Counted from the stretch's first letter, positions 5,325-32,410 are shown. The stretch is 39,846 nucleotides of DNA from Lysobacterales bacterium (GCA_022844165.1 JALHMH010000040.1:1-39846), one strand, 5' to 3'. Numbers and translations are program-made. The notes: generated by a model not told the origin, from the sequence alone.

Positions 5325-7591
5325 CCGGTGCATGGTTGGCGTTGCTGTTTGCCGCGGGCGAACCGGCGGCGCCGTTGGCGGCGCAACTGGATGCCGCAAT
5401 TGCGGCGCCAGACACCTACGATTACGCAAAGTTGTGGACCGGCTTCGCCGAACGCGGCGACTTCGAATCCAATACGCACTACGCTTTGTTTGGTCAGTTC
5501 GCGAATCCCTTTGCGCCCAGCGATGACGAATGCACGGCGCATGCGCCGGCGGCTCGATCTGCCTTGGACCACGTGCCGGTGTCGTTAGCGCTGCACTATG
5601 TGGTGGCTGCTTGCGGCGATGAATCGACGGCAAAGGCGCATGCCGCAATTCTCAAGGGTCTGGTTGCATCCCAGGAGCGGCCGTATACGGGCCGTTTTCC
5701 GATCACAGCCTATCGCGTTTTTCACCGCTGGGACGCAGAAGCGCTGATTCGCAGCAAGGGCTACGAGGTGCACAGCGTAGCGCTGCAGCCCATGGATGAT
5801 TACAGCGTCGCGCCGTTGAGTTTTGTGGTGACCACGAGCGACGACCCGCGCCAATTCGAAGTCTATGTCGACATTCTCGATTTGCCAGCGCGCATTCTCG
5901 AACGCGATCCAAACGCGCATCCACTGCTGCGGCCAGCGTTGTTGATCGAACTCGCGGACTCGGGTCTGATCGACCCGAATCGACCGCTCGACACGGCAAC
6001 CCGTGTGGTCGATGCGGTGATTCATCTCGGTGCTGGGGACATCGATGCCGAACGGGCGCGGCGCAGTATTCTGGAAGTGCGCAACGCCGATCGCGGCGCG
6101 GTGGCGAAAATGCTCGAACTCTGTGCCCTCGGCGAATTGCAATATTGCCAGGCCAACGACATCGACCTGTTGCTCGACGATGCCGAAACCGGCAATCCTC
6201 AGGCGCTGATCATGCTCAGCGTTTTGCACGCCAAGGGTTACCTGGTTGCCGCAAACGGTGAGCGCGCGCTGGGCTTCTACAAACAACTGCGTGAACGCAG
6301 CGATGCCGACTATGCGGCGATCCACATGGCGGCAAAGCTCTCGCGATTGCGGATCGGGAATGCCGCCAACGCCGCGGCTGGCCCGCTATTGGCGGCGCTC
6401 GTCGAAGATCTCGTCAAGGCGGCGCCAAATTTTCCGCCCGCCCATCTGGCGCTCGGTTGGTTGAGCTTCCTGGGGGCGCCGGGGACCGACAAAATGGGTA
6501 CCTTGGTAGAGCTGGCAGAACGCGCCTGGCGCGGAGGATTCTTGCCCGCTGGACTGACTCAGGCGGCCCCCTGGTCTGGCGATCCCGCCCAGCGCGAACG
6601 CGCCATCGAACGACTGACGGAGATCAACTCGAGCGTTGCCACGGCCACATCCCGATTTTTGCTCGGCAACAACTTGCGTGCCGAAGGGCGTTACGACGAA
6701 GCAGGACCTTGGATTGCGAGTGCCGCAGGCACCGGCTCACCGGCGGCGATGTTGATTTACGCGGACGAGTTTTTTGGCGACAGCGACGAACGTGCGGCGA
6801 TGGGCCGAGCCCTGTTGCATACGGCGTTTGCGCTAAAACATCTGCCGGCCTTGCCGGCGCTCGTCGACAGCTATATCCACCAGCCGGCAAGCAGCGAGGA
6901 AATGTTGGAGGTTTACAACATGCTGGTGGCGGCAACCGAGACGACCGATCTGGCCATTTTCCATCTGGCCCTTGGGCGTGCTGAGATTGCCGGGCTGGGC
7001 GGAAAGAAGCAGTTGCGGCGTGGATTGAAGTCAGTGCGGCATGCGCAGAAACGTGGATCGCCTACGGCGTTCCTGTACGAGTACGAACTGATCGAATCGG
7101 GCCAGCTGCGTGCGTCGAGTTGGCGTAAGCGCGTTAAGCTGCTCGACGGGGCTTTGGACTTCGGGGCAGCGCCAGCCATCAAGGCAACAGTGGGTCGAAT
7201 CCTGTACAGCCATCGGGAATCGACGTCGACCGAACAAGACCGCGGGTTGCGCTTGATGGTCGAGGCGGAAGAAGGTGGTCAAACCTATGTTCTCAATGAC
7301 GCCGCATGGTCGATGTGTACCGAGCGGGGCGATACGCAGCGGGGGTGGTTACTGGCCAGGCGCGCCCTCGAGCGCCGGCGCGATGGCACCACGCTCGATA
7401 CCACTGCCGCATGCGCTGCCGTGAACGGTGACTTCGCCGCAGCCATCGAGTTGCAAACCGCCGCGCTGCAGGCGCAGCCCGATGATCCGCGGCTGACAGA
7501 CGTCCGCGAGCGGTTCGAAAAGCGGCTGGCGAATTACCGTGCCGGAAACGTCGAGTTTGGGCAGACTCCAACGCCAGGAGATTCAGAATGA
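5321..7591 (+). CDS. Sel1/TPR-repeat secreted protein
   Basis: 756-aa ORF with ATGA overlap to the upstream gene; Sel1-like helices (AETGNPQALIMLSVLHAKG, AAGTGSPAAM); C-terminal LNDAAW...LDTTAACAAVNGDFAAAIELQ TPR-type element. Confidence 0.7.
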   Translation: MTGAWLALLFAAGEPAAPLAAQLDAAIAAPDTYDYAKLWTGFAERGDFESNTHYALFGQFANPFAPSDDECTAHAPAARSALDHVPVSLALHYVVAACGDESTAKAHAAILKGLVASQERPYTGRFPITAYRVFHRWDAEALIRSKGYEVHSVALQPMDDYSVAPLSFVVTTSDDPRQFEVYVDILDLPARILERDPNAHPLLRPALLIELADSGLIDPNRPLDTATRVVDAVIHLGAGDIDAERARRSILEVRNADRGAVAKMLELCALGELQYCQANDIDLLLDDAETGNPQALIMLSVLHAKGYLVAANGERALGFYKQLRERSDADYAAIHMAAKLSRLRIGNAANAAAGPLLAALVEDLVKAAPNFPPAHLALGWLSFLGAPGTDKMGTLVELAERAWRGGFLPAGLTQAAPWSGDPAQRERAIERLTEINSSVATATSRFLLGNNLRAEGRYDEAGPWIASAAGTGSPAAMLIYADEFFGDSDERAAMGRALLHTAFALKHLPALPALVDSYIHQPASSEEMLEVYNMLVAATETTDLAIFHLALGRAEIAGLGGKKQLRRGLKSVRHAQKRGSPTAFLYEYELIESGQLRASSWRKRVKLLDGALDFGAAPAIKATVGRILYSHRESTSTEQDRGLRLMVEAEEGGQTYVLNDAAWSMCTERGDTQRGWLLARRALERRRDGTTLDTTAACAAVNGDFAAAIELQTAALQAQPDDPRLTDVRERFEKRLANYRAGNVEFGQTPTPGDSE

Positions 7592-12658: not shown

Positions 12659-14470
12659 ATGCCCTTATTGTCGCGCGCTTTAGTCGTCGTACTTGTGCTG
12701 CTGACGGCCGCTTGCCAAACCGTGCCGCGCAAGCCAGCGGCGCAGTTCAGCGAAATGGACGCTCAGACGTTAATGTTGCAGGGTGACTTCCGGGGCGCTG
12801 CAAATGCCTACCTGACGCTGGCCAGGAGCGATCGCTCTCAGCGTTCGCGTTACCGATTGCGCGCCGCCGAGGCGTATCGGGAGGAAGGCGATCAAGCGGC
12901 GATGCAAGATCTGCTGGGCGATATCGATCGCGCCAAACTGCCAGCCGAGGACGCCTTTCGAGTGGATTTGATCGAGGCTGAGCTGGCGCTTGGTCGCGGC
13001 GACGCGGTGTCTGCGGATGCGTTGCTGATTGAACCACCCAGCGGCATACCGGCCGATTTCGGACCGCGTTTTTATGAACTTCGGGCCCGCGCAAAAGAGG
13101 CGCAAGGCCAGACGCTGGCCGCGATCGGTGATCGCGCCGTGCTGGATGGTCTGCTGCAAGACGAGTCGGATCGCAGCGCGAACGCAGCGGAGATCCAGCG
13201 TCTGGTGGGCACCATTCCCGAAGCGGAATTGACCGCCAGGTTGCGCTCGGCTCAGCGCGACGACCCGCTATACACCTGGTTGCTTGCCGGCGCTCGCGCC
13301 CAGGCGCAGGCACGTGGCAGCGAGGGATATGCCAGCGATATCGCGACATCGCGCCCCATCGAGCCCGGCGTTGCGCCGATCGTACTCGACCATATCGAAC
13401 GAGGCGCTTACGCTCGCGTGGCACTACTGTTGCCGAGTAAAGGCCCGCTCGCAGCGGCGGCGGCGGCGCTCCGCGAGGGCGTGTTTGCGGCCCACTTCGC
13501 CGAACGCGGTGAGCGCGCGGCGATTACCGTTTATGACGCGGGCGGAACGGCCGAGGAGGCGCTGGCAGCTTATCGTGCGGCAATCGATGCCGGCGCAGAA
13601 CGGGTACTTGGTCCGCTCTCGCGGGAGGCGGTCACAGCGCTGTTTCAGAGCGATGTGCCGCGTGTGCCTACGTTGGCGCTGAATTACGCTGACGCACCGG
13701 CACTGCCGCCGCCAGGAAGCTTGCAGTTCGCTTTGCTGCCTGAAGAAGAAGCGGCCGCTGCCGCTGATCGGCTGCTCGCGCGTGGTTTGCGCCGCGCGTT
13801 GGTGCTGGTACCTGACGATGATGTCGGCAAGCGTGCGGCGGATGCATTCGGCGAACGCATGCGCGGCCAGGGCGGCAAAATCTCCGGCATTGCCACCTAC
13901 GATGCCGCCGCCTCCGACCAAAGCCGCACCATCCGCAGCCTTGTCGGTTTGGAGCAAAGTCAGGGGCGTGCCCAATTTTTGCGCGGGCTGCTCGGGATCG
14001 ACTTGAAAATGGAGCCAACGCCGCGCAGCGATGTCGACGCATTGTTCTTGTTTGCGAGAAATGCGCAGGCGCGTGTTCTGCTGCCGCAACTGCGAAACGC
14101 TGAAGCGACGCGCTATCCGATCATCGCCACCAGTGCCATTTACGGTGGCAGCAACAGCGCCGCCGACAGCGAGCTGGATGGCGTGGAATTTGCGGAAGTG
14201 CCGTGGATACTCGGCATCACCGATGCGACCAATATTCCGACACGGGCACAGTTGGTCAGCTTGCGCAATGCCTCGGGTCCTGCTGCACGCTTATTCGCTT
14301 TTGGCATTGACGCGTATCGGCTGCTGCCCCATTTGGAGTGGTTGGAGCGCAATCCAGGGCGGCCGGTGATTGGCGCCACCGGGGCGCTCAGCGCCGATCC
14401 GAACGGGCGCATCCGCCGCGAACCTGCCTGGGCGCGTTATGTTGGAGCGAGCCCGCGCAAGATTGACTAG
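12659..14470 (+). CDS. lpoA: Penicillin-binding protein activator lipoprotein (LppC/LpoA family)
   Basis: Lipoprotein signal ending LTAAC, TPR-like N-terminus, VALLLP...LGPLSR, RLFAFGIDAY; canonical position divergent from rsmI and before yraN. Confidence 0.9.
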   Translation: MPLLSRALVVVLVLLTAACQTVPRKPAAQFSEMDAQTLMLQGDFRGAANAYLTLARSDRSQRSRYRLRAAEAYREEGDQAAMQDLLGDIDRAKLPAEDAFRVDLIEAELALGRGDAVSADALLIEPPSGIPADFGPRFYELRARAKEAQGQTLAAIGDRAVLDGLLQDESDRSANAAEIQRLVGTIPEAELTARLRSAQRDDPLYTWLLAGARAQAQARGSEGYASDIATSRPIEPGVAPIVLDHIERGAYARVALLLPSKGPLAAAAAALREGVFAAHFAERGERAAITVYDAGGTAEEALAAYRAAIDAGAERVLGPLSREAVTALFQSDVPRVPTLALNYADAPALPPPGSLQFALLPEEEAAAAADRLLARGLRRALVLVPDDDVGKRAADAFGERMRGQGGKISGIATYDAAASDQSRTIRSLVGLEQSQGRAQFLRGLLGIDLKMEPTPRSDVDALFLFARNAQARVLLPQLRNAEATRYPIIATSAIYGGSNSAADSELDGVEFAEVPWILGITDATNIPTRAQLVSLRNASGPAARLFAFGIDAYRLLPHLEWLERNPGRPVIGATGALSADPNGRIRREPAWARYVGASPRKID

Positions 14471-14481
14471 CTGGGTGCGGC

Positions 14482-14853
14482 TTGTCCTCGTTGTCCCGCT
14501 GGTTGACACGATTGCGAGGAAACCGTGCGGAACTTGCCGCATTGACCGAGCTGAAGGCCGCTGGACTGGTGTTGGTCGCACGCAACTTCGCCACCCGCGA
14601 GGGCGAAATCGATCTGGTGATGCGCGATGGCGACGTGCTGGTTTTTGTCGAGGTGCGATACCGAGGCAACCTTAGCTTCGGCGACGGCATCGCCAGCATC
14701 GATGCGCGCAAGCGCAAACGCATCCTGATCGCTGCGGCTCAATTCGTGCAAAAGCACCCGCACTGGCGCCTTTCGCCGCAGCGCTTCGATGCTGTGTCGA
14801 TGGGGCAGGGCGAGACCCGCTGGGTGCGCAACGTGTTCGTTGTCGATCGATAA
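14482..14853 (+). CDS. yraN: YraN family (UPF0102) nuclease-fold protein
   Basis: RNF...GEIDLVM...LVFVEVRYR...RFDAV; follows lpoA; TTG start uncertain. Confidence 0.92.
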   Translation: MSSLSRWLTRLRGNRAELAALTELKAAGLVLVARNFATREGEIDLVMRDGDVLVFVEVRYRGNLSFGDGIASIDARKRKRILIAAAQFVQKHPHWRLSPQRFDAVSMGQGETRWVRNVFVVDR

Positions 14854-14892
14854 TGTCGACTTTCGCCATGGATCAGACCGCAAGAGCCCCGG

Positions 14893-15222
14893 TCAGCGTT
14901 TCGCTCGCAGCGCAGCCGCGTTGGCGAGCCGCGCCCACGGCGCAAATCTCGCAGGTGCGTCCATCGCGTCGTCTGGTGCCGTGTAGTAACTCATGGTGAT
15001 TGGCTTGTGTTTGCCGAGGTAAACGAAAGGACGGCAACCCTCGCGTTCGAACTGAGGCCGCGTTTGTGCGTCCACCTTCAGGTATAAGAGCGAATCGGCG
15101 ATCAGGCCCAGCATGCGATCCTCAAAGTAGATGCCAAAGCCGCCAAACATCTTTCGAGCACGAATCGGGCCGAATTCGGAGAATAGTTCTTTGACGTACT
15201 CAACAAAGGCGTCGTCGGACAT
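14893..15222 (-). CDS. TfoX/Sxy N-terminal-domain protein
   Basis: ARKMFGGFGIY, LYLKVD, PFVY, MSYY motifs; start ATG 15222 with GGAGGG RBS. Confidence 0.88.
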   Translation of the reverse strand: MSDDAFVEYVKELFSEFGPIRARKMFGGFGIYFEDRMLGLIADSLLYLKVDAQTRPQFEREGCRPFVYLGKHKPITMSYYTAPDDAMDAPARFAPWARLANAAALRAKR

Positions 15223-15297
15223 CGGCTGCCCTCCTGAACAAGCCCCTATCATCCGGACTTTTTTCACGCATTTGAAGAAATCATCGCCAATGTGCAT

Positions 15298-15325
15298 TTG
15301 CACCGAGTCAATCTTCCGCTACACT
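15298..15325 (+). promoter_or_regulatory. Putative sigma70 promoter of the LysM-dprA-smg unit
   Basis: TTGCAC-N16-TACACT, ending 25 nt upstream of ATG 15351. Confidence 0.4.
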
Positions 15326-22771: not shown

Positions 22772-22972
22772 CTCTAGCGAGGCTTCGCCTCAGACCGCCG
22801 AGCGTTGTTGGCTTCGCCAGACACCGTACTTGCCTAAACCCCCATTGAGCGCTGCGCGCTCAATCGCCCCCTTGTACTCAAGGGGGCTTCAACAGCCGAA
22901 GCCGCTTCGTAGAAAATTTGACTCATTTGTCGAGATCAGTCTCCGTCAAGGACTCTAGCGAGGCTTCGCTAG
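22772..22972. repeat. REP/MITE-like palindromic element bounded by 17-bp direct repeats
   Basis: CTCTAGCGAGGCTTCGC at 22772-22788 and 22953-22969; internal hairpins 22844-22864 (ATTGAGCGC/GCGCTCAAT), 22866-22887 (GCCCCCTTG/CAAGGGGGC) and 22897-22909. Confidence 0.6.
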
Positions 22973-24918
22973 TGACTGACCACCGCCGCAGCCCAATAAA
23001 ACGGCAGGGTCATCGCCTCTGAGTCGCTGCGTTGCCACCAGGAGCGCACGCGGGTTGCAATACTGGGTTTGCGATGCTCGGTCAGCCATTGTCGTTGTGC
23101 CTGGGCCAATGCCAGAGCGACGTCGCCGTGCTCGAGTCGGGCGCGATGAAAAGCAACCATCGTGCGCGCCGTGGCAGCGTCCGGCACTGGCCACAGGGTT
23201 GCAAGCACATGTTGCGCGCCGGCGCGGTGCCAGGCGCGCGACATACTCAGCGGCCGTTCGCTGGCAGCGCTGCCACGTTGGCTGGCGCAGCCGCTCAGCA
23301 CCACAAGCGCCCGCCGACCTGCGTAACGGGCAACCTCGTCATCGTGCAGCCAGCCATCCTCGCCGTGGCCGGGCGCCAAAGCAATCATGCTGCGTTTGTC
23401 GTCCAGCGGATGACGCAGCATGTGCGCGGCAATGTGCAGATCGGCGTTCGCCGGCAGCGCCTGCAACGCCGCCTCTTGGGCGTCAGCGCCGAGCAACAGC
23501 GTCGCCTGCGGGTACAGCGCGGCGATGTCCTGCGCCTCCCTCGCAGCGCCGCCCAAGCGGCCGCCGTTGCGCTGCAACGCGCCAGCCGCCACGCCGGGGT
23601 CGCCAACGATCCACAGCGGGTTCGAGTCAACCGCGCTCGACATCTCTTTCATCTGCACACGATCTGCGCGCAGCAGCGCCGCGTCCTCGATCAAATAGCG
23701 GCCTGAGTCCGAGTCCACAATCAGTGCCGCGAATGGCAGTGCGTGCAGCGGGCCGTCGCTTTGTATCAGCACGCGCCGCGCGCCCGGGCGCCAGCCCGGC
23801 GCCACCAGTTGCCGATAAAGTGCCGCCAGGCGCATCTCCAGTGCACCGCGATCGGCGTGTTCGCGCGCAGCAATCAGCAGCAACGTGGACTCCACGGCCT
23901 CTTGCAGATCGGTGTCCGTCAATCCGATGTCCGCAACGCGCAGTTCGCCGCGAAACGACGACAACAACAGAGTGCGGCGGTCGTGCACCACATAGGTCAA
24001 CAACAGGCTGTGCTCATCCAAATCAGGTGTTTCCTGAGGCGCGCCGCGCATGCGCTGCGCCAGGGCCAGCGCCGCCGCCAGATCGCCGCGTTCGGCAGCG
24101 CGTACGATGGCCGTGCGATAGAAGAACGCGAATTGCGCGGCCCACTGCGACTGAATGTCGCCGTCGTCGCTTTGTCGCGTGCGTTCGGTCTCCAGGCGCT
24201 CGATCGCCGTCATCCACGAGCGCTCCGCTGCCCGGCGTTGCCCTCGTGCCTCTTGCACCAGTCCCAGAAAGAAATGCGCGATCCCTTCCGCGACACTGTT
24301 GGGCGCGTGTTGTTGGCGCAACAGCAGCGTTTCTTCGGTCGCTCGTTCGGCTGCGTCTACCTCTCCGCGAACAATTTCTGCGTACGCGAGATAACTGAGC
24401 AGCTGGGCGCGCAGCAGCGGCACCTTCGAGCCAAGGAGGTCAAGTGCTGGTAGCAACTGCTCGCGTGCGCGGTCGGCGCGACCCATCGCCATATAGACGG
24501 CGGCGAGCGCGTAGGCGCGTTCGGCGTTAATCGACGCGTGTTGGGAATGCACACTGAGCAATGCAGCTTCTGCTTGCCGCAGGTCGCCTTGCTCGAATCG
24601 CGATTGCGCCAGTACGATGATGGCGCGTTCCTTCAATGGCGCAGATTCGGACAAGCTCGCGCCGTAGTCGTCGAACCACTGCAGCATGCGCTGTTCGGCC
24701 AACACATGCTGTCCGCGCCGCAGTACGATGCGTGCCGCTTCCAAATCGATCGCCGCCGGATCGGCTTTTCCGCGCAGCGATTCCAGCCTGGCCTCTGCCT
24801 CGCCAAGGCGACGTCGTTCGCTGAGTTGTTCGACTTCCTCAAGGCTCATCGCAAAGAGCGGCGCGGCGGCGATCGCCCATGCCCACAGCAAGAGTCCGAT
24901 TGGTCTGGCCATGCGCAT
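22969..24918 (-). CDS. TPR + CHAT (caspase-like) peptidase with N-terminal signal peptide
   Basis: SDGPLHALPFAAL, LGGAAREA, LHIAAH (His 23422-24), VVLSGC (Cys 23287-89), AGAQHVLATLWPVPD, PFYWAA; N-terminus MRMARPIGLLLWAWAIAAAPLFA. Confidence 0.9.
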   Translation of the reverse strand: MRMARPIGLLLWAWAIAAAPLFAMSLEEVEQLSERRRLGEAEARLESLRGKADPAAIDLEAARIVLRRGQHVLAEQRMLQWFDDYGASLSESAPLKERAIIVLAQSRFEQGDLRQAEAALLSVHSQHASINAERAYALAAVYMAMGRADRAREQLLPALDLLGSKVPLLRAQLLSYLAYAEIVRGEVDAAERATEETLLLRQQHAPNSVAEGIAHFFLGLVQEARGQRRAAERSWMTAIERLETERTRQSDDGDIQSQWAAQFAFFYRTAIVRAAERGDLAAALALAQRMRGAPQETPDLDEHSLLLTYVVHDRRTLLLSSFRGELRVADIGLTDTDLQEAVESTLLLIAAREHADRGALEMRLAALYRQLVAPGWRPGARRVLIQSDGPLHALPFAALIVDSDSGRYLIEDAALLRADRVQMKEMSSAVDSNPLWIVGDPGVAAGALQRNGGRLGGAAREAQDIAALYPQATLLLGADAQEAALQALPANADLHIAAHMLRHPLDDKRSMIALAPGHGEDGWLHDDEVARYAGRRALVVLSGCASQRGSAASERPLSMSRAWHRAGAQHVLATLWPVPDAATARTMVAFHRARLEHGDVALALAQAQRQWLTEHRKPSIATRVRSWWQRSDSEAMTLPFYWAAAVVSH

Positions 24919-24921
24919 CGT

Positions 24922-25506
24922 TCAACGCACGCGAAAATGGAAAGGGCCCAACTCGTCGGCAGCGCAGCGCACGGTCCATAAGTAGGTGCCGGCGGGCAGC
25001 GCGCCATCGAAAGCCGCGGTGCCTCCGCGTACGCCGTCGCTGCGCCAGACGCGTTCGCCCGTTGGGCGACGTACGTCGACACGGCAAATCGCGCCGGCTG
25101 GAACCATCCATCGAAACTCGTTTGGCGCGCCGCTAAGCTCGCTGCCGATCTGCGGGTGTAGCGCTCCGGCACTGCCGCGCAGCACCTCGTCGGCTGCTTG
25201 CGGTCGCATCACGGATACCACCCAACCCGCGCCAACCGCGAGCAGCAGGCTCGCGGCCACGGCCCACAGCGGAGAGATGCGTCCACGCCGGAGAATCACA
25301 GCAGCCGGCTCGCGTCCGGCCTGCAAGCCAACCTCGATTTGCGCTATCGCCGCGCAGCGCGTGCAGGTCGCCAGCGCCTGCAGCGTATCGGCGTCCCCAG
25401 CGCCGCGCATCGCGGCGGCGATGCCCTCGGCGCTGGGACAGCCTTCGCCACCGCGCGGGCAAGCCACTGCATGCTGCTGATAGGCCTTCCTCAAGGCATC
25501 ACTCAT
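24922..25506 (-). CDS. Putative anti-sigma factor (Cys-rich N-terminus, one TM, periplasmic beta domain)
   Basis: CPSAE...LATCTRC zinc-finger-like motif, TM LWAVAASLLLAVGAGWVV, then VLRG and a beta-rich C-domain; overlaps the ECF sigma stop (ATGAGTGA). Confidence 0.75.
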   Translation of the reverse strand: MSDALRKAYQQHAVACPRGGEGCPSAEGIAAAMRGAGDADTLQALATCTRCAAIAQIEVGLQAGREPAAVILRRGRISPLWAVAASLLLAVGAGWVVSVMRPQAADEVLRGSAGALHPQIGSELSGAPNEFRWMVPAGAICRVDVRRPTGERVWRSDGVRGGTAAFDGALPAGTYLWTVRCAADELGPFHFRVR

Positions 25507-25999
25507 AACTCACCCCACAACGCATCAAGCTGGCTTTGAGCTCATCTAATCCGCGATACACCAAATTGCGCACCGTCGCCTCGCTCAGGCCTTCCATGAC
25601 CGCAATTTGCGCCAAATCGAAGCCCTGCAAATGCAAGGCCACAGGGCGCTGCCGACGTTCTGGCAGTTGTGCCAACGCGCCGGCGATATGCGCGCCCAAC
25701 TCGGCAGACCGCGTTTGCGTATCGGCGTTGTCCGGAACGGAGTACCCGTCCGGCAACGGCTGCGGCGCGTGCCGTAATTTTCGAATGTGGTCCACAATCA
25801 CGCTCATCACCGCACGATGCAAATAAGACGGTGGATGGGCGATCGTATTCTCGCGTTCCAGAACACGCCACAGCTTAAGGCGCACTTCCTGCTCGATGTC
25901 ATCCGCATCCAGGCCCAGCGAGGGCGACACGCGCGAGCGCACCAGCGAGCGCAGGGGCTTGCAGAGATCTTTCAGCAGAGCATCGATGCGTCGCGTCAT
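25499..25999 (-). CDS. ECF-family RNA polymerase sigma factor
   Basis: Region 2 DADDIEQEVRLKLW...YLHRAVMSVIVDHIRK; region 4 LAQLPERRQ...QIAVMEGLSEATVRNLVYRG. Start is ATG 25999 or TTG 26035. Confidence 0.9.
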   Translation of the reverse strand: MTRRIDALLKDLCKPLRSLVRSRVSPSLGLDADDIEQEVRLKLWRVLERENTIAHPPSYLHRAVMSVIVDHIRKLRHAPQPLPDGYSVPDNADTQTRSAELGAHIAGALAQLPERRQRPVALHLQGFDLAQIAVMEGLSEATVRNLVYRGLDELKASLMRCGVSYE

Positions 26000-26038
26000 C
26001 CGAACATCAGACCATCCACAGGCAGCCGCAAGCAAGCC

Positions 26039-28792
26039 TCATTCGAAGCCATCCGCGAGCATCGCGCTGGGGCCAGTCTGCAGACTATGGAACCACTGCT
26101 CGAAGTTCAGGTTCGCGTACGCCTGCAAGTTGTTGCTGCGCTCAAGTTCGAATTGGATGACCGCGGCCAGTTCCGGCGAGCCGTTCTGTGCCCAGCCCTC
26201 CCAAACCGTGCGCGCGCTGGCAAGCATCTGCGGGCTGAGCACGTGGCTGCTGCCATCGCCGTTGGCGAAAGCGGTGAGTGCGGGCAACAGATCGGCGAAG
26301 GTGCGTTGCCTTGCCTCGAAATGTTCGGTGAAGCCGAACGTGGTCCCCAGAATCTCGGCCGCATGGCGATGGTACAAGTCGAAGTAGTAGCGTCCGGCAG
26401 CCGTGGCCTCGAAACGCCCATGCAGCCTCGCCAGTAGTGGCGGTTGCGCGCTGCCGCGCTCCGGGTCAAATTCAAGGCTGATGAGATTGCAGCGACGCAC
26501 CAATTGACAAACACAAAGCCAAAGCACGAACTGACTCGATCGGATATTGGTTGGCGCCAAGGGGCTGCCGACACTCGGTGTGCCGTATTGCGTGGCGATG
26601 GCCAGTGTTCCCTGGGCATCGACAAACGCCAGGCGCGTACTGCCAAACTGCGTGAACGCTAAATGCTGCCCTGGCACTGCGTTGCCGAGCGGTTCGGCTT
26701 GCCAGATATCGCCTCCGTCCGCTTGCGCCAGGCGGATTCGGCGTTCTCCGGCTTGATCGTAGGTAAATAACAAGCGCGGCTGCGCGCCGCCTCGTTGCAC
26801 ATGCCTGAGTTGGGCATCGCGCATTTGGCGCTCAGCAGAGGGCGAGATGATCTCGCCCGCAATCTGAGTCCAGGAGCCATTTACCCAAATGGCATAGTCC
26901 AGCCGATGGGTGCCGGAAAAAGAGACCGAATAGGCGATGGCCGGGCGGTCCAATTGCGCGACGTCCAATGCCACCACCTGCGCGCCGTAAATCGAAAGTC
27001 CCGCATCGTTCAGCGGCGCCAACAGCGTTTCCGTGAGCACACCTGAGGGCCAGTCGGCGTCGATGCGCAGTACCCGGATTCCGCTGGTCCCGTCGCCCGC
27101 CGGATCATGGCCGGCAACGAACAACGATCCAGGAAAGCCGGTCGCAGCAAGACGAACGCGCGTCAGGCCGTCCGCGGCGACGAGCCAACGCGGCGCGTTG
27201 GCCGCAAGCCCTTGCGTCCATATGCGCGAGTGGGCCCCGTGGCGCAGCAGGACAAAGGCCCGACCGTCCGGCCCCAGCGCGAGGTCGAAGTCATCAGCGA
27301 GCGGCCCGCCGAGCGCCTGGATACTCCAATCGGAGCCGGTCCAGAATGCATAGTGCACTTGCCCGTTCGCGCTTTTCAGCGCCAGATGTGGGCGATCCAG
27401 GGAATCGACGTCCAGCCTGGCATCGTCGACATCCAGAGCTGGCGGCAAGGGGCGCTCGCTGAAACCACCATCAACCACAGTCCACACGCTGCCGCTGCCG
27501 TTCGGTACATGCTGCGCATAAAAGATGGGTGCTCCAGAACTATCCTCGGTCAACGCCAGAACACTGTCGGCAGAAAGTCCACTCGGGCCTTGCCTGATCA
27601 CCCAAGGAGGCAACTCGCGCACCCACACCAGGTCTCGATGGTTGCTGAAATCCAGCGCCAGCGCATGCAGCTGGCCTTCGCTGTCATAAGCAACGTCATG
27701 CACCTTCGCGAGCGAATGGATCGCCAGCTCGGAAAACGTCGCGCCGGGTCTTTCGCGAAAGAGACGGTATCGCTGGTTAAGATCATTGAAGGTCAACGCC
27801 CATTGCTGACCGGGCCCGACGGCCAGCGCGTTGGGCGCGAGACCTTGCGCGGTGAGCGCAGTCAGGATCGGGGCGCATGATCCAGCGCAAACGAACTGTG
27901 TTGATCCAGCCACGCGCACCCGGCGCTGCACGATATGCGGCGACGGTGCGCCAATGCTTGGGGGCGGCCGGGCGATGACGATTGCGATCTCAGAACTGCC
28001 ATCGGCCCGCGTGGCGAAGTATTGCCATTGCAGACGATCGCCGTTGCCCGGTACGAAGGTCGCAATCGGTTGATCGGCAACTTGCGATCCCGCGATGCGC
28101 GCCCAACGCACCTGGTGCGAACTGGAATCGAGTTCAGCGTAGACCAATTCGGGGTGAGCCAGCGTGCCGATGGGTTGCACGGCAAACGCCGGTCGCGATG
28201 CTGTCGAGGTGACGCCAAACGGCGCTACAGCTGACCAGGTGCCGAGCGCTCGTTGCTGAACTCGCAGCACACCGACGCCATCGCTGCGCGCCGTATCGAT
28301 CCACGCTGCGATCGGCTCGCTTGCCGCGTTCATGGTCAGCGTGGGTGTCGCAACGTTGCCGACATCCAGCACATGCCGCACAGGTGCACCCGGAATGGCT
28401 TCGATGTGCACCAAGACATCGTCCGCCGTTCCTGCGCCATGCGGCTCGATCAGCAGCACATGCACCCGCCCGCTGGCATTGATAGCGATGCGCATATCGC
28501 GGGTACTGTCGCCGACAGTGCCGAGCATCTGCACCGTGCCGATCTTTTCGCGGCGCCAGGCCCAACCATCGTAGCGCCGCAGGAATAACTCCGCCGGGCG
28601 CACCTGGGTGCTATTCAGTGTTGCGGTGTCGATCAGCGCGACCACCGGATGATCGGTCTGCGGATTGATTGCCATCGCGGCGTAGACATCGCTCGATCCC
28701 AGAGACTCGACCATCTCATAACGCGCCGCAGTCGGCGTCTCGGGAAAGCTGATTGCCGATAGGGCGGCGGCGAGCCACAGGGCGACACTCAT
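26039..28792 (-). CDS. Large secreted beta-propeller-like protein with C-terminal LADGFE tail
   Basis: 917 aa from ATG 28792 (signal MSVALWLAAALSA); repeated blade-like units (DSEGQLHAL, DSLDRPHLA, GPDGRAFVL); helical C-domain GRYYFDLYHRHAAEI; ends AMLADGFE*. Confidence 0.78.
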   Translation of the reverse strand: MSVALWLAAALSAISFPETPTAARYEMVESLGSSDVYAAMAINPQTDHPVVALIDTATLNSTQVRPAELFLRRYDGWAWRREKIGTVQMLGTVGDSTRDMRIAINASGRVHVLLIEPHGAGTADDVLVHIEAIPGAPVRHVLDVGNVATPTLTMNAASEPIAAWIDTARSDGVGVLRVQQRALGTWSAVAPFGVTSTASRPAFAVQPIGTLAHPELVYAELDSSSHQVRWARIAGSQVADQPIATFVPGNGDRLQWQYFATRADGSSEIAIVIARPPPSIGAPSPHIVQRRVRVAGSTQFVCAGSCAPILTALTAQGLAPNALAVGPGQQWALTFNDLNQRYRLFRERPGATFSELAIHSLAKVHDVAYDSEGQLHALALDFSNHRDLVWVRELPPWVIRQGPSGLSADSVLALTEDSSGAPIFYAQHVPNGSGSVWTVVDGGFSERPLPPALDVDDARLDVDSLDRPHLALKSANGQVHYAFWTGSDWSIQALGGPLADDFDLALGPDGRAFVLLRHGAHSRIWTQGLAANAPRWLVAADGLTRVRLAATGFPGSLFVAGHDPAGDGTSGIRVLRIDADWPSGVLTETLLAPLNDAGLSIYGAQVVALDVAQLDRPAIAYSVSFSGTHRLDYAIWVNGSWTQIAGEIISPSAERQMRDAQLRHVQRGGAQPRLLFTYDQAGERRIRLAQADGGDIWQAEPLGNAVPGQHLAFTQFGSTRLAFVDAQGTLAIATQYGTPSVGSPLAPTNIRSSQFVLWLCVCQLVRRCNLISLEFDPERGSAQPPLLARLHGRFEATAAGRYYFDLYHRHAAEILGTTFGFTEHFEARQRTFADLLPALTAFANGDGSSHVLSPQMLASARTVWEGWAQNGSPELAAVIQFELERSNNLQAYANLNFEQWFHSLQTGPSAMLADGFE

Positions 28793-28917
28793 GACGGCGT
28801 CCGAAGCAATGCGTTGCTGGCCAGCCCACCAAGCTGGCAATTGCAGACAAAGAAAGCCGCCGGTACCGGTGCGCTCCACATCGGCAACAGCAACCATAGC
28901 CAGCGAAATCCGCACAT
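28789..28917 (-). CDS. Putative 42-aa secreted Cys-containing peptide, first gene of the ECF/CHAT operon
   Basis: MCGFRWLWLLLPMWSAPVPAAFFVCNCQLGGLASNALLRTPS; GGGAGA RBS; stop overlaps the next ATG (ATGA); ATG lies 30 nt after the putative ECF -10. Confidence 0.5.
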   Translation of the reverse strand: MCGFRWLWLLLPMWSAPVPAAFFVCNCQLGGLASNALLRTPS

Positions 28918-28947
28918 CGTTCTTTCTCCCGAGACCGTCAGGTACCA

Positions 28948-28975
28948 GACGAGCGAAATGCGCAGTTTTTCTCGC
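28948..28975 (-). promoter_or_regulatory. Putative ECF-sigma promoter (leftward operon)
   Basis: GCGAGAAAA-ACTGCGCATTTCGC-TCGTC on the minus strand; same architecture as 29672-29699. Confidence 0.6.
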
Positions 28976-29225
28976 GCCATCGCAGCGCCCTCGCAATGCG
29001 CGTGCGCGCGCCGAATGCACGAACAGCATCGCGGCGTTCGCCGTGCACTCAGACGATTCGAGTCAGGCTTTGCAGGTGCGTGCCGGCGACGTCCAATTCG
29101 ATCCGAAGGTGCGAAGTTCGGCCAAGAACGCGCCCGCCAGCGCAGCTTACGGAGCTCGGCTCCGTGCGACTCGCCCCCGCCAGATCGTGCCCACCTCGTC
29201 GTTCGGAAGTTCGTCTACAAAGTGC

Positions 29226-29256
29226 ATTCCGATCTTGCTCAACACAGGATCGGAAT
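29226..29256. terminator. Stem-loop downstream of the DUF4349-like remnant
   Basis: ATTCCGATC...GATCGGAAT inverted repeat, 20 nt past the 29277 stop; no U-tract. Confidence 0.35.
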
Positions 29257-29276
29257 CGACACACCATTCGGCGCGA

Positions 29277-29627
29277 TCAGCCCCGGCGCGCGCCGGTCGC
29301 CCATCGCCAGAGCAATCGCCACAACAGCGCCAGCGGGAACAACAGGAACAGGAAGGGAAGCGCATAGGCAGCTGCCTCAATGGCTTCGGCGGCACCGTCG
29401 AGGAACTGATCAGCCGCATCGCCGATGGCTTCGGCCAATGCCGCCGAGCGCGACGGCGGCGGCTTGATGGCGTTGAATTCCAAGGTCAGCAGATTGGTCT
29501 CCAAACGCAGCGCGTGCTGCGCAGCCATGCGTTCCGCTGCTGCTCTTTCGGCCTCTAACGTCGCCAGCTCGCGGGCCAGCTGCAGGTGGTCGGCGACGCT
29601 GGTCGTCCTTGTCGACTGCCCGATCAC
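29277..29627 (-). pseudogene. 5'-truncated DUF4349-like gene remnant
   Basis: Coiled-coil SVADHLQLARELATLE, then LLTLEF strand and TM LPFLFLLFPLALLW, resembling only the C-terminal part of DUF4349 proteins; in-frame TAA two codons above the GTG; no signal peptide or RBS. Confidence 0.55.
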
Positions 29628-29671: not shown

Positions 29672-29699
29672 GTGAGAAAATTTGTGGTCAGGCGTCGTC
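29672..29699 (+). promoter_or_regulatory. Putative ECF-sigma promoter (rightward gene)
   Basis: GTGAGAAAA-TTTGTGGTCAGGCG-TCGTC, 29 nt upstream of ATG 29729. Confidence 0.6.
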
Positions 29700-29728
29700 G
29701 ATAACACCCATTGACGGAGAACTGCGAT

Positions 29729-32410
29729 ATGCGAAGCTTGGCAATGGCAACACTGGCAGGAGCGCTTTTGCTGCTCTTCGCAGCTGCGCCCGACGCGTCG
29801 GCAGCATGGCCGCCGCCCACGCCGGCGCAGATCAGCTTGAGCGTGCGCAACACGAGTGCGGTCGACCGCAACGAGCTGGTGCGCGGCGGCGTACCGTTGC
29901 CGCGAGCGCTGTCGCTGACTCACACCGGCAGCTTGGCGATTGTCGACCAAAACGGCGTTGCGGTGCCTGCTGCCTTTCAAGTGCTGGCGCGTTGGAATGC
30001 GCCGCGTAACGACAACAGTGCGCCAATACAGTGGTTGTTGGTGCGGTTCTTGGCCTCCATGCCCGCAGGAGGCACGCGCAGTTTTACGCTACGCACCGAC
30101 GGCAGCATCGTCAATCCAGCCCCGCAAGTGGTCGTCACCGTGGCGCCGGATGGGAGCGGCCTGCGCGTTGACACCGGAATCGCGAGGTTCGTTGTGGGTA
30201 GCGATTTATCGCGCGTCTTCGATCGCATCGAGCGTCCTATCCTCACCCCACTGGCGAGCAGTCAATTCAGCTCGACGATCAATGGGAATGCCGCGAACGG
30301 ATTCGGTCAGGCGCGACGCGTGATCGTCGAACACGCTGATGCACTCAGTGCCACGATCATTGTCGAAGGTGTATATGGCCACGCGAATGTCGGCAACGGC
30401 GGCATCAGTGGCGGCCGCCGTCTCGAGTTTGCCGCCGGTTCAGGTGCGGTCAGCGTTCGCGAATGGATCGATTGGGAGGGCCAACGCTGCGCCGTTGAGC
30501 AGCTCGACTGCGGCAACGGACTGAACGCCGTTTCACTGGATCGTTGGCGCGTGCAGTTGCTGCCCACGCTGGGCGCAGGAACAACATTGACGATGCAGGC
30601 CAGCGAAGCGGCCCCGCCAGCGAGCGTTTCTGTTGCGCCGGGGGATATCGCAATGCTGCGCCAATTGCGGCGCAGCGATCGACAGCAGCCGCAACGCTTC
30701 GAACTGGCGCTGCCGGGCCAACCACTGCGCAGCGGCGCGCGCGCGGATCGAGCGGTGGCGTTGCTCTCCGGCAGCGCCGGCGCATTGGGTGTGACCATCG
30801 GTGGTATGGCCGACTACGAGCCTCAGGCGCTGCGTTTACTCGCAAATGGCGCACTCGCTCTCGATCTGGCCGACGATGCCGTTTGGCTGGCGGCGCGCCA
30901 GGGCGCCTTCGCTACCTATCGCGTCGGCGCTTATGCGCCCGGCACATCGTTCGCGGCAGCGGGTGCCGACCTTTGGCCGGCACTCAATGCACCGTTGACA
31001 GCGATGCCGACCGCCGAGTGGATTGCCGCATCGCGCGCGACGGATGAGTTTCCGATCGGGACCTTGCCGCCGGCGTTGGCCGGATTCGATACCGCTCTGG
31101 ACGACTTGATCGACCGCACCATCGAGTTGCGCCGCGACCGTGGTTTGGAGGGTTTGACGACCTTCGGCTTATATCCGCGGAACTGGGGCAATCCGGTGCT
31201 CAGCGACGAGATCGATTGTGGTCCAGGCCAGGACCCGACGCCGGGCAACGATTGGGATGATCCATTCTGGTGCGCCACCTGGACCGACTATCACAACACA
31301 ACGGCGATGGCAGTCATCGCTGCCTGGCGCCACGCAGATCCGGCGCCGATCCATCACCTGGCTCGCCCGGCGGCGTTGCGATCCTTGCACACGCAAATGC
31401 TGCGTTGTGCACCGAGTGACGGCTATTTCTACTGCGGGCAGTTTCCGACTGGCTACGGCGGTTACCGAGTCGATTTCAACAGTTCGCATGCCTATGTCGA
31501 AAACCTGATCCTCTACTATTGGTTGAGTGGCGATCGCACCGTGATCGAGCGCTTGCAGCGCGGCGCAAACACCATGCGCGGCTACCTATGTCCGGGTCGC
31601 GGCAGTACACCGCCCGGGCCGATCTGCAGTCCGACGACGCCGATCAGCGACGAATTTGCCGGCGTCAATGATCGTGTTGCGAGTCAGTTCTATCAGATCT
31701 TCCGGTTTGTCGGCCTTGCCTCCGATGACGCGAGTTTCCTCGACGACTGGCGAAGTAATACGGCACGATTCCTGACGCAGAACTTTGCGCTGGTGCAACA
31801 GGGTGGTCAGCTGCTCGGATTTACGGAACCTTCGGGCGCTGGCAGCACGACCATCATCGGTGGTCCGGGCAGCTACTATTCGACGCAACTGTGGATGGCA
31901 TCGATCTACGACTTCAACCTATTGCATCGACTGCAAATCGACACGCAGGACGCACCCCTGGGGTTGCCGGCGGTCACGCCCAGCGCCGCCCAACAGGGTT
32001 TTGCCCGTGCGCTGCGTGCGATCGGGCAGACGCCGCCTGGCAACGGCAGCGCGGCGGGAACGTGGCCAAACACTGTGCGCTTTACGTTCAGCGGCGCTCG
32101 CATTGGCGGCAACCTCACCGCGCTGGAACCTGGGTGGGTTCCAAATTCGATGCCACAGCCATGTTTCGACGATTGTTTGTACGACACGGGCAAGTCGCCG
32201 CTGAGCGCAGTATTCGCCCGCGCAGCCGACGAAACTGGCGATCCGCAACTGCGCGCTTCAGCGTTGGACTTTGCTTTGTTGGCTCTGCAATCGATTGCCA
32301 CGACCCCGCAACCGATGAGTAAATCCAGCGGTGAATTGTTCGGACGACTGACAGCAGCGGTCGCGCGATTGGCCGCGGACGAATCCGTATTCGGTGATGG
32401 CTTTGAGTAG
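29729..32410 (+). CDS. Secreted RIFT-barrel / PcRGLX-YetA (exo-rhamnogalacturonan lyase)-like protein with VFGDGFE tail
   Basis: 893 aa, GGAGA RBS, signal peptide; N-terminal LSVRNTSAVDRNELVRGGVPLP...FQVLARW...IQWLLVRF; beta-sandwich, then helical toroid (SSHAYVENLILYYWLSGD); ends SVFGDGFE*. Confidence 0.72.
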   Translation: MRSLAMATLAGALLLLFAAAPDASAAWPPPTPAQISLSVRNTSAVDRNELVRGGVPLPRALSLTHTGSLAIVDQNGVAVPAAFQVLARWNAPRNDNSAPIQWLLVRFLASMPAGGTRSFTLRTDGSIVNPAPQVVVTVAPDGSGLRVDTGIARFVVGSDLSRVFDRIERPILTPLASSQFSSTINGNAANGFGQARRVIVEHADALSATIIVEGVYGHANVGNGGISGGRRLEFAAGSGAVSVREWIDWEGQRCAVEQLDCGNGLNAVSLDRWRVQLLPTLGAGTTLTMQASEAAPPASVSVAPGDIAMLRQLRRSDRQQPQRFELALPGQPLRSGARADRAVALLSGSAGALGVTIGGMADYEPQALRLLANGALALDLADDAVWLAARQGAFATYRVGAYAPGTSFAAAGADLWPALNAPLTAMPTAEWIAASRATDEFPIGTLPPALAGFDTALDDLIDRTIELRRDRGLEGLTTFGLYPRNWGNPVLSDEIDCGPGQDPTPGNDWDDPFWCATWTDYHNTTAMAVIAAWRHADPAPIHHLARPAALRSLHTQMLRCAPSDGYFYCGQFPTGYGGYRVDFNSSHAYVENLILYYWLSGDRTVIERLQRGANTMRGYLCPGRGSTPPGPICSPTTPISDEFAGVNDRVASQFYQIFRFVGLASDDASFLDDWRSNTARFLTQNFALVQQGGQLLGFTEPSGAGSTTIIGGPGSYYSTQLWMASIYDFNLLHRLQIDTQDAPLGLPAVTPSAAQQGFARALRAIGQTPPGNGSAAGTWPNTVRFTFSGARIGGNLTALEPGWVPNSMPQPCFDDCLYDTGKSPLSAVFARAADETGDPQLRASALDFALLALQSIATTPQPMSKSSGELFGRLTAAVARLAADESVFGDGFE

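Follow-up and report, generated by a model that had tools for sequence, protein, structure and literature searches.

What does a caspase-like CHAT protease that looks exported do when its gene follows directly on those of a sigma factor of the extracytoplasmic function (ECF) type and a putative membrane-bound anti-sigma factor? The question is raised by four open reading frames (ORFs) that lie head to tail on the minus strand of a stretch of 39,846 nucleotides from Lysobacterales bacterium (GCA_022844165.1 JALHMH010000040.1:1-39846), the whole of which is called the window below. In order of transcription they encode a large exported protein, the ECF sigma factor, the single-pass anti-sigma factor and the TPR-CHAT protein (Table 1). 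An earlier note, made from the sequence alone, had proposed that the exported CHAT protein acts on the outer domain of the anti-sigma factor and so frees the sigma factor. A fused counterpart has been described in Myxococcus xanthus, where DdvA, the partner of DdvS, consists of a ZAS transmembrane anti-sigma factor joined to a periplasmic TPR-CHAT part, with a structure from cryo-electron microscopy (PMC11506125; PMC6061681; DdvA structures in PDB 8rot, 8rw5 and 8rlz). We suggest, with a probability of about 0.5 for the explanation as a whole, that the locus is a split, two-polypeptide form of a DdvA/DdvS-type ECF switch, in which the CHAT protein cuts the anti-sigma factor.

The ECF, anti-sigma and CHAT genes

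The four genes are closely packed. The large gene lies 3 or 39 nt from the ECF gene, depending on the start codon of the latter, the ECF and anti-sigma genes overlap by 8 nt, and the CHAT gene follows after another 3 nt, in agreement with the tight operon (overlaps and gaps of 3-39 nt) described in the earlier note. DNA similarity to a genome of the same genus (81.8%) covers exactly positions 22967-28804, that is, the four genes, and both flanks differ. The flanking genes are ordinary chromosomal ones (dprA, DUF494/smg, rsmI, LppC, mscL and a two-component pair), and in a Pfam scan of the window ORFs the neighbours of the block were housekeeping genes or exported proteins. The cassette proteins matched no defence-system model (CBASS or CRISPR) in PADLOC, and the window ORFs that were scanned included no member of a cas family.

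The sigma factor matched the Pfam families Sigma70_r2 (E = 1.5e-7) and r4_2 (E = 8.7e-11), and it exceeded the cut-off of NCBIfam TIGR02937 (59.4 bits, cut-off 42.9), a match that places it in the general ECF superfamily only. It is thus an ECF factor with sigma-2 and sigma-4 regions whose gene adjoins an anti-sigma gene. Its closest solved relatives, in a profile search against PDB, were SigE of M. tuberculosis (4e-14) and sigma-E of E. coli (2.4e-12).

The 194-aa protein matched no family in Pfam or NCBIfam, and its single sequence had no phmmer match in PDB. Aligned with 12 orthologues (13 sequences in all), it shows a zf-HC2/ZAS-like block at the N-terminus, a single hydrophobic helix, then a short linker, and a C-terminal domain that is conserved. 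The profile of these 13 sequences matched residues 7-98 of the DdvA chain from cryo-electron microscopy (8rot_B, E = 8.8e-7), followed by the nuclear magnetic resonance chain of the DdvA N-terminus (8rlz_A, E = 0.011) and by M. tuberculosis RslA (3hug_B, E = 0.13). The AlphaFold model (predicted local distance difference test, pLDDT, 78.6) has helices at residues 3-65, a single transmembrane helix at 81-100 and a beta-sandwich at 117-194. Its C-terminal domain exceeds pLDDT 90, and residues 100-113 fall below 50, pointing to a flexible or disordered linker. Within this linker lies Arg110 (VLRGS; LR[G/S/T/A] in the family), which is invariant in 13 of 13 sequences. A Foldseek search with the sandwich recovered generic immunoglobulin-like (Ig-like), FN3 and CopC-like folds only. 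Judged by the profile match and the modelled helices, the N-terminal domain is homologous to the N-terminus of DdvA and the protein is an anti-sigma factor, as the earlier reading of it as a transmembrane anti-sigma-like protein had held. From the homology to DdvA and the coupling of the genes we infer that this helical domain binds the sigma factor.

The CHAT domain (PF12770) was matched at residues 364-647 with E = 3.8e-40 (138.6 bits, cut-off 24), preceded by weak TPR matches. With a profile score above the curated cut-off and the dyad in place, the protein falls into clan CD. The catalytic His and Cys noticed earlier in LHIAAH and VVLSGC correspond to His499 and Cys544 (codon 23287-23289), and both are invariant in 12 of 12 aligned orthologues. 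The Met that follows the His had been taken as a warning of inactivity; as 3 of the 12 orthologues have M here, 6 have A and 3 have G, the warning loses its force. On sequence grounds the protein looks catalytically active. Its N-terminus has two basic residues and then a 12-residue hydrophobic core. By hydrophobicity calculation, all 12 orthologues have such a core after basic residues and none has a later transmembrane-like segment, so that the signal peptide predicted earlier was recovered as a signal-like N-terminus. Most orthologues are larger (880-1130 aa), with more TPRs and a sub-threshold PDZ-like start; the lineage of the window has a short form of 645-690 aa. The AlphaFold model of the CHAT protein (pLDDT 78.9, predicted template modelling score 0.77) had as its best solved match in Foldseek the periplasmic TPR-CHAT part of DdvA (8rot_A, E = 6.3e-14, 668 columns, 18% identity). 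Chains of Csx29 formed the second group of matches (E = 8.6e-13 and weaker) and separases the third. A phmmer search of PDB with the single CHAT sequence gave no match, and the results of a whole-length CHAT profile were dominated by TPR matches.

A six-frame search with the anti-sigma factor over 399 genomes of the order recovered it in 16 genomes, at 17 places. Fifteen of these places, from five families, carry the ECF, anti-sigma and CHAT genes (13 loci are complete, and another 2, truncated at contig ends, fit the same pattern), and the two places without CHAT have the weakest anti-sigma matches (E = 1.7e-4 and 9.5e-4). Throughout, the ECF gene comes first, the anti-sigma gene second and CHAT third, with overlaps or spacings of 0-30 nt, and all 13 complete loci have the anti-sigma factor and CHAT as separate ORFs. 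Conservation of the triad as a unit had been set beforehand as a test of the proposal, and the triad is kept as a unit. At the level of the class, 4 further genomes of 400 were found, with N-terminal matches only (7 candidates scored per genome), and a word-indexed protein search returned 11 proteins.

At the level of protein sequences alone, a profile search of a library of 1.84 billion proteins recovered 2062 cluster representatives of this anti-sigma family at E = 1e-10 or better. The top 150 were mostly full-length (180-257 aa), and the nine named members inspected were all annotated as "hypothetical protein", one of them from a metagenome-assembled genome of Holophagales. The Ig-like domain also recurs outside this setting: some giant proteins (1100-4500 aa; P0013, P0027, P0028, P0049 and P0092) contain 9-18 copies of it in tandem.

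From metagenomes, 80 loci retrieved with a CHAT-domain alignment as the query were taken as a sample, 33 of them with at least 1.3 kb upstream of the CHAT gene. A zf-HC2 anti-sigma factor was encoded upstream of CHAT in four of the 33 (L075, L076, L094 and L109), with an ECF gene beside it in two by Pfam; the split arrangement therefore recurs in unrelated lineages. The GC content of the four loci ranged from 0.42 to 0.62, and the anti-sigma factor of L076 has the same Ig-like domain, preceded by VRG. Our own ECF and anti-sigma hidden Markov models found few of the metagenome neighbours, partly through over-specificity, and more were recovered by running Pfam on the ORFs upstream. The sample also showed exported CHAT proteins in another recurrent signalling context, with TPR-CHAT genes downstream of CHASE2 Ser/Thr kinases, a CHASE2 cyclase or a GGDEF protein (L047, L050, L089, L114 and L122), in some cases with a weak FecR-like protein in between.

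A multimer model of CHAT and the anti-sigma factor, proposed as a check in the earlier note, was made from residues 25-649 of the former and 98-194 of the latter. The predicted complex scored 0.68, as against 0.02 for the best of three controls; the mark used for this score is reached by 58 of 80 solved complexes and by 2 of 110 mismatched pairs. Contacts agreed between runs in at least 48%, with a partner pLDDT of at least 73. On the anti-sigma side the confident interface is the Ig-like domain (139-190), including its conserved C-terminal GP..F, and on the CHAT side it comprises TPR residues 71-75 and 107-112, a helix at 340-363 and a loop at 502-507 just past His499. The model supports binding of the periplasmic Ig-like domain by CHAT and is silent on cleavage.

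Possible roles of the CHAT protein

Three results support the core idea that CHAT acts on the anti-sigma factor: the gene order is conserved, each of the two halves is homologous to DdvA, where they are fused, and the modelled complex passed its controls. They make this part of the proposal in the earlier note plausible and give it a firmer footing; cleavage, its site, the signal and the regulon are what we infer. In our estimate the odds of joint control of the sigma factor by CHAT and the anti-sigma factor are about four in five, and those of a cut in this anti-sigma factor by CHAT about one in two. In the mechanism that we propose, the N-terminal helical domain of the anti-sigma factor would hold the ECF factor at the inner face of the membrane in the resting state, and TPR-CHAT, exported by its own signal peptide, would dock on the Ig-like domain near the catalytic His. 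A periplasmic signal of some kind would be read by the TPR part, together with the PDZ-like part in the longer orthologues, and would let the His-Cys dyad make a site-1 cut in the anti-sigma factor outside the membrane. Clearing of the remainder would then fall to a site-2 protease of the RseP type and to cytoplasmic proteases; elsewhere, the genome encodes an M50 site-2 protease (E = 1.9e-66). The freed sigma factor would transcribe its own operon from a promoter of the GGACG-N18-TCTCA type, plus neighbouring genes for large exported proteins.

Several observations weigh against cleavage by CHAT or against the kinship with DdvA/DdvS. Mutants of the DdvA dyad did not differ from the wild type in behaviour, and autoproteolysis was not observed in the conditions that were tried, according to the portion of that report on which we draw (PMC11506125). 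In our complex model the Arg110 linker is not among the confident predicted contacts, which are those of the Ig-like domain. Export of CHAT is predicted from hydrophobicity alone. In two of the 13 loci CHAT seems disrupted next to an ECF and an anti-sigma gene that are kept (an interrupted frame in L027, about 200 C-terminal residues in L032), damage that may be assembly error. The CHCC zinc site (C...HxxxCxxC) is lacking from the window copy of the anti-sigma factor, which has Ala for His, and among the 13 anti-sigma sequences HxxxCxxC is complete in 5, reduced to CxxC in 5 and absent altogether in 3. DdvS was not among the 25 PDB matches of the ECF profile at E = 1e-3. Finally, 29 of the 33 related metagenome CHAT genes have no anti-sigma neighbour, so sigma control is not the dedicated task of CHAT as such.

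The last point also fits an arrangement in which CHAT is an output of the sigma factor and not its trigger, acting on other envelope or secreted proteins, such as the large exported neighbours, with the Ig-like domain as the sensor. ECF operons often carry effector genes, CHAT is the last gene of the operon, and large exported proteins recur beside the triad. We consider this unlikely nevertheless, since both halves are fused in DdvA, the predicted specific docking on the outer domain of the anti-sigma factor passes its controls, and the neighbours vary among loci whereas the triad is constant. The docking itself leaves room for another role, that of a binding partner: CHAT might be an RseB-like or securin-like guard that leaves on a signal, with another protease making the first cut, or it might cut a third protein whose fragment signals. 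The modelled contacts are indeed domain to domain beside the active site and do not place the linker in it, and the DdvA dyad was found in resting geometry (in the part of PMC11506125 used here), with mutants that lack a phenotype. Pure binding would not require a dyad, however, and none of the 12 orthologues has lost His or Cys; we regard a role of this kind as improbable to a similar degree. That an ordinary ECF pair merely happens to lie beside an unrelated CHAT gene is extremely improbable. The other two CHAT genes of the genome do lack an ECF neighbour, but at 15 of the 17 anti-sigma places, spread over five families, these three genes stand in one and the same order with overlaps, and the four-gene block is conserved between flanks that differ.

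Regulated cleavage of the anti-sigma factor by CHAT remains the explanation that we prefer, and it can be extended, tentatively and with more doubt than confidence, to a broader one. Free exported TPR-CHAT proteins would then serve a large class of ECF anti-sigma factors in several phyla as their dedicated site-1 proteases, the Ig-like domain would be a bait or a securin-like hold beside the active site, the cut would fall at LR|G of the juxtamembrane linker, and the targets in Lysobacterales would be large exported proteins that look glycan-active. If true, regulated intramembrane proteolysis would gain a branch that works with a cysteine protease. Among anti-sigma factors that bear CHAT, DdvA is the only studied case, and its self-cleavage is unobserved in the sections of the reports covered here. 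As the presumed enzyme and substrate of the window are separate, small and separately expressible, a cleavage assay and mapping of the site would be straightforward, and the DdvA mechanism becomes testable in vitro.

Promoter-like motif, exported neighbours and the GFE tail

Table 1. Features of the CHAT locus, in window positions (residue numbers for the parts of the protein).
Feature	Position	Strand	Description
Large exported protein (predicted)	26039..28792 (29029 with upstream ATG)	minus	917 aa (996 aa)
ECF sigma factor	25499..26035	minus	178 aa from TTG 26035; more likely 166 aa from ATG 25999
Single-pass anti-sigma factor (predicted)	24922..25506	minus	194 aa
Exported TPR-CHAT protease (predicted)	22969..24918	minus	649 aa
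Parts of the TPR-CHAT protein			signal-like N-terminus ~1-24; TPR helices ~40-290; CHAT 364-647; His499, Cys544
63-aa ORF	28789..28980	minus	no match in Pfam or NCBIfam
116-aa ORF	29277..29627	minus	directly downstream of the promoter-like site; coiled-coil and C-terminal hydrophobic helix
Candidate ECF-type promoter	29673..29699	minus	GACG-N18-TCTCA, match extends to TTTCTCACC; points into the minus-strand genes
Divergent exported protein (predicted)	29720..32410	plus	896 aa (ORF of 899 aa); signal-like N-terminus in the translation; ends ...DGFE

In 7 of the 13 triad loci the coding strand carries a two-block motif, GACG-N17/18-TCTCA with the fuller consensus tAGGACGCAG-N15-TCTCAC, at a distance of 56-158 nt upstream of the ECF start. 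Seven loci have a second copy, facing the divergent gene, and in total there were 20 matches in 257.5 kb. We take the form of the motif to resemble that of sigma-E-type promoters. The core pattern is expected by chance about once per window, and the evidence for a promoter is therefore carried by position and recurrence. The copy listed in Table 1 is the sole match in the locus region of the window, 46 nt before the 116-aa ORF and about 880 nt before the 917-aa gene; none was found in the window upstream of the divergent 896-aa gene. A sigma-70-like promoter was not found at the locus, and terminator-like sites were no more frequent there than in shuffled sequences. In the same-genus genome G022 (locus L023) a copy of the motif at 14469-14495 points at a second sigma gene (14773-15312; Sigma70_ECF, Pfam E = 1.3e-29), a few kb from the cassette.

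The 917-aa protein matched no family in Pfam or NCBIfam. It is 92% identical in the same-genus genome and is co-linear with the triad in that genus only; its C-terminal part has weak relatives in L029 (27% over 396 aa, E = 2e-28) and L031. It had been called a propeller, for which the sole basis is a score of 0.77 for BNR_4 clusters of the atlas, below the threshold of 0.9 for a lead, and the assignment was not confirmed. The divergent 896-aa protein, likewise without a match in Pfam or NCBIfam, reached 0.95 for the PcRGLX_1st/2nd clusters of the atlas, so that it is PcRGLX/GH127-like by language-model features, as a lead. Full-length homologues stand beside the triad in L026, L027, L029 and L030, and L031, L034 and L035 show similarity at the N-terminus.

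The secreted partners of the earlier note hold up in part: the two large exported proteins recur near triads, and the peptide that had been counted with them finds no support. This 63-aa ORF had a best tblastn match of E = 0.23 in related loci and lies outside the colinear block ending at 28804; as it is not conserved, we rejected it as a gene, and it is probably spurious. The 116-aa ORF, with a sub-threshold match of its C-terminal half to DUF4349 in Pfam (E = 1e-5, 25.5 bits, cut-off 27.7) and no conservation in related loci, may be a remnant gene. Positions 28793-29627 as a whole look like decayed coding sequence, including the DUF4349-like half, and a 32-residue piece at about 29150-29250 matches the end of a 181-aa ORF that precedes the homologous gene in the same-genus genome.

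The two large exported proteins have the same ending, ...DGFE (codons at window positions 26039-26053 and 32393-32407). Sixty-two of the 5203 ORFs of at least 200 aa in the genome end in GFE, against 18 for the next commonest terminal tripeptide, and the consensus at the very C-terminus is D-x-(L/V)-F-A-(N/D)-G-F-E. A signal-like N-terminal hydrophobic stretch was present in 50 of these 62 ORFs, compared with 585 of 1497 other long ORFs. Seven families of the order show the DNA pattern for F-x-[N/D]-G-F-E-stop tens of times per genome, and the other families hardly at all (reversed-pattern control 0-2 matches), and a full-text search for NGFE together with "C-terminal" found no paper. A second TPR-CHAT gene of the same genome (G000; 1102 aa; locus L039, contig C14, 6874-10182) is divergent to a gene for a 435-aa protein with a GFE tail (5564-6871), with no sigma factor nearby.

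CHAT was considered as the processing enzyme of this tail and rejected, because families without the triad use the tail too, with tens of such genes per genome. In one such family (f10) 44 of 44 genomes have the tail and none of the 44 the anti-sigma factor, and genome G243 has two triads and no tail match. Use of the GFE tail is not coupled to the CHAT triad. Reading of the tails by a PDZ domain of CHAT was also rejected; PDZ stays below threshold in the long orthologues (E = 5e-4 and 4e-3), and the region is missing from the CHAT protein of the window. In genomes G243 and G341, which are without the GFE tail, divergent exported neighbours of 953-954 aa (L031, 9149-12013; L035, 9368-12229) bear D-P-I-F-x-D-G right after the signal peptide, and other neighbours end in F-x-D-R-F-E plus a few residues. 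A tail-like motif may work at either end of a protein.

Comparison with known systems

The earlier note had stated that no such arrangement was characterised. This is outdated, as DdvA/DdvS has been studied and the same site-1 idea published in 2018 and again in 2024 (PMC6061681, PMC11506125): its authors proposed that CHAT clips its own linker in trans and that RseP follows, and RseP-dependent degradation was shown for truncated forms of DdvA (PMC11506125). New here are the split form acting in trans and a context other than defence. In a full-text literature search, supplements aside, which may list such loci, we found no paper on a free exported TPR-CHAT protein beside an ECF/anti-sigma pair, and the main text of the ECF reclassification paper (PMC7826278), whose group contexts are in supplements, does not contain CHAT, caspase, peptidase or TPR.

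The locus shares with DdvA/DdvS the ECF factor, a single-pass ZAS-like anti-sigma factor, a predicted periplasmic TPR-CHAT part with a His-Cys dyad, and the proposed logic of a site-1 cut followed by RseP. Unlike DdvA, in which TPR-CHAT is part of the anti-sigma polypeptide, the two are encoded here by separate ORFs 3 nt apart, and the protease has a signal-like N-terminus of its own. The Ig-like outer domain of the anti-sigma factor has no equivalent in DdvA, and the TPR part is shorter here (649 aa for the whole protein). Control of a CBASS/CRISPR defence island, as in the Myxococcus system, finds no counterpart at this locus, given the PADLOC result. As far as the consulted part of the report goes, fused DdvA homologues are found only in Myxococcota and one Comamonas, and this published near-confinement of TPR-CHAT anti-sigma systems would widen (PMC11506125).

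The type III-E Craspase system (Csx29, Csx30 and an ECF-type sigma factor; PMC10028731) likewise ties a TPR-CHAT protein to an ECF-type sigma factor through cleavage of an inhibitor. It is cytoplasmic, however, and triggered by RNA-guided Cas7-11, whereas the protease here looks exported and has no cas family near it; neither the association with Cas7-11 nor the cytoplasmic location that define Craspase was found. Genes for EACC2-caspases adjoin those of an ECF sigma and of a TPR (DUF1822) protein, and protease-triggered transcription has been proposed for them (Kaur et al. 2021, PMC8195603). Their domain architectures are different, and the sections of that paper drawn on here describe neither a membrane anti-sigma factor nor an exported CHAT protein.

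Separase and securin offer a more distant likeness, in that separase also combines a TPR-like part with a CHAT/caspase fold, and the predicted docking of the partner beside the active site recalls a bound inhibitor. Separase is eukaryotic and cytoplasmic or nuclear, and the partners have no sequence relationship. In the DegS-RseA-RseP-sigmaE pathway, a single-pass anti-sigma factor receives a periplasmic site-1 cut and then a site-2 cut by an M50 protease, and the ECF factor is autoregulated from a promoter of the GGAAC...TCTRA kind. In that pathway a PDZ serine protease makes the site-1 cut, in contrast to the clan-CD cysteine protease of the window, and the anti-sigma families differ; the proposed order of cuts is the same, and the M50 protease that it would call for is present in this genome.

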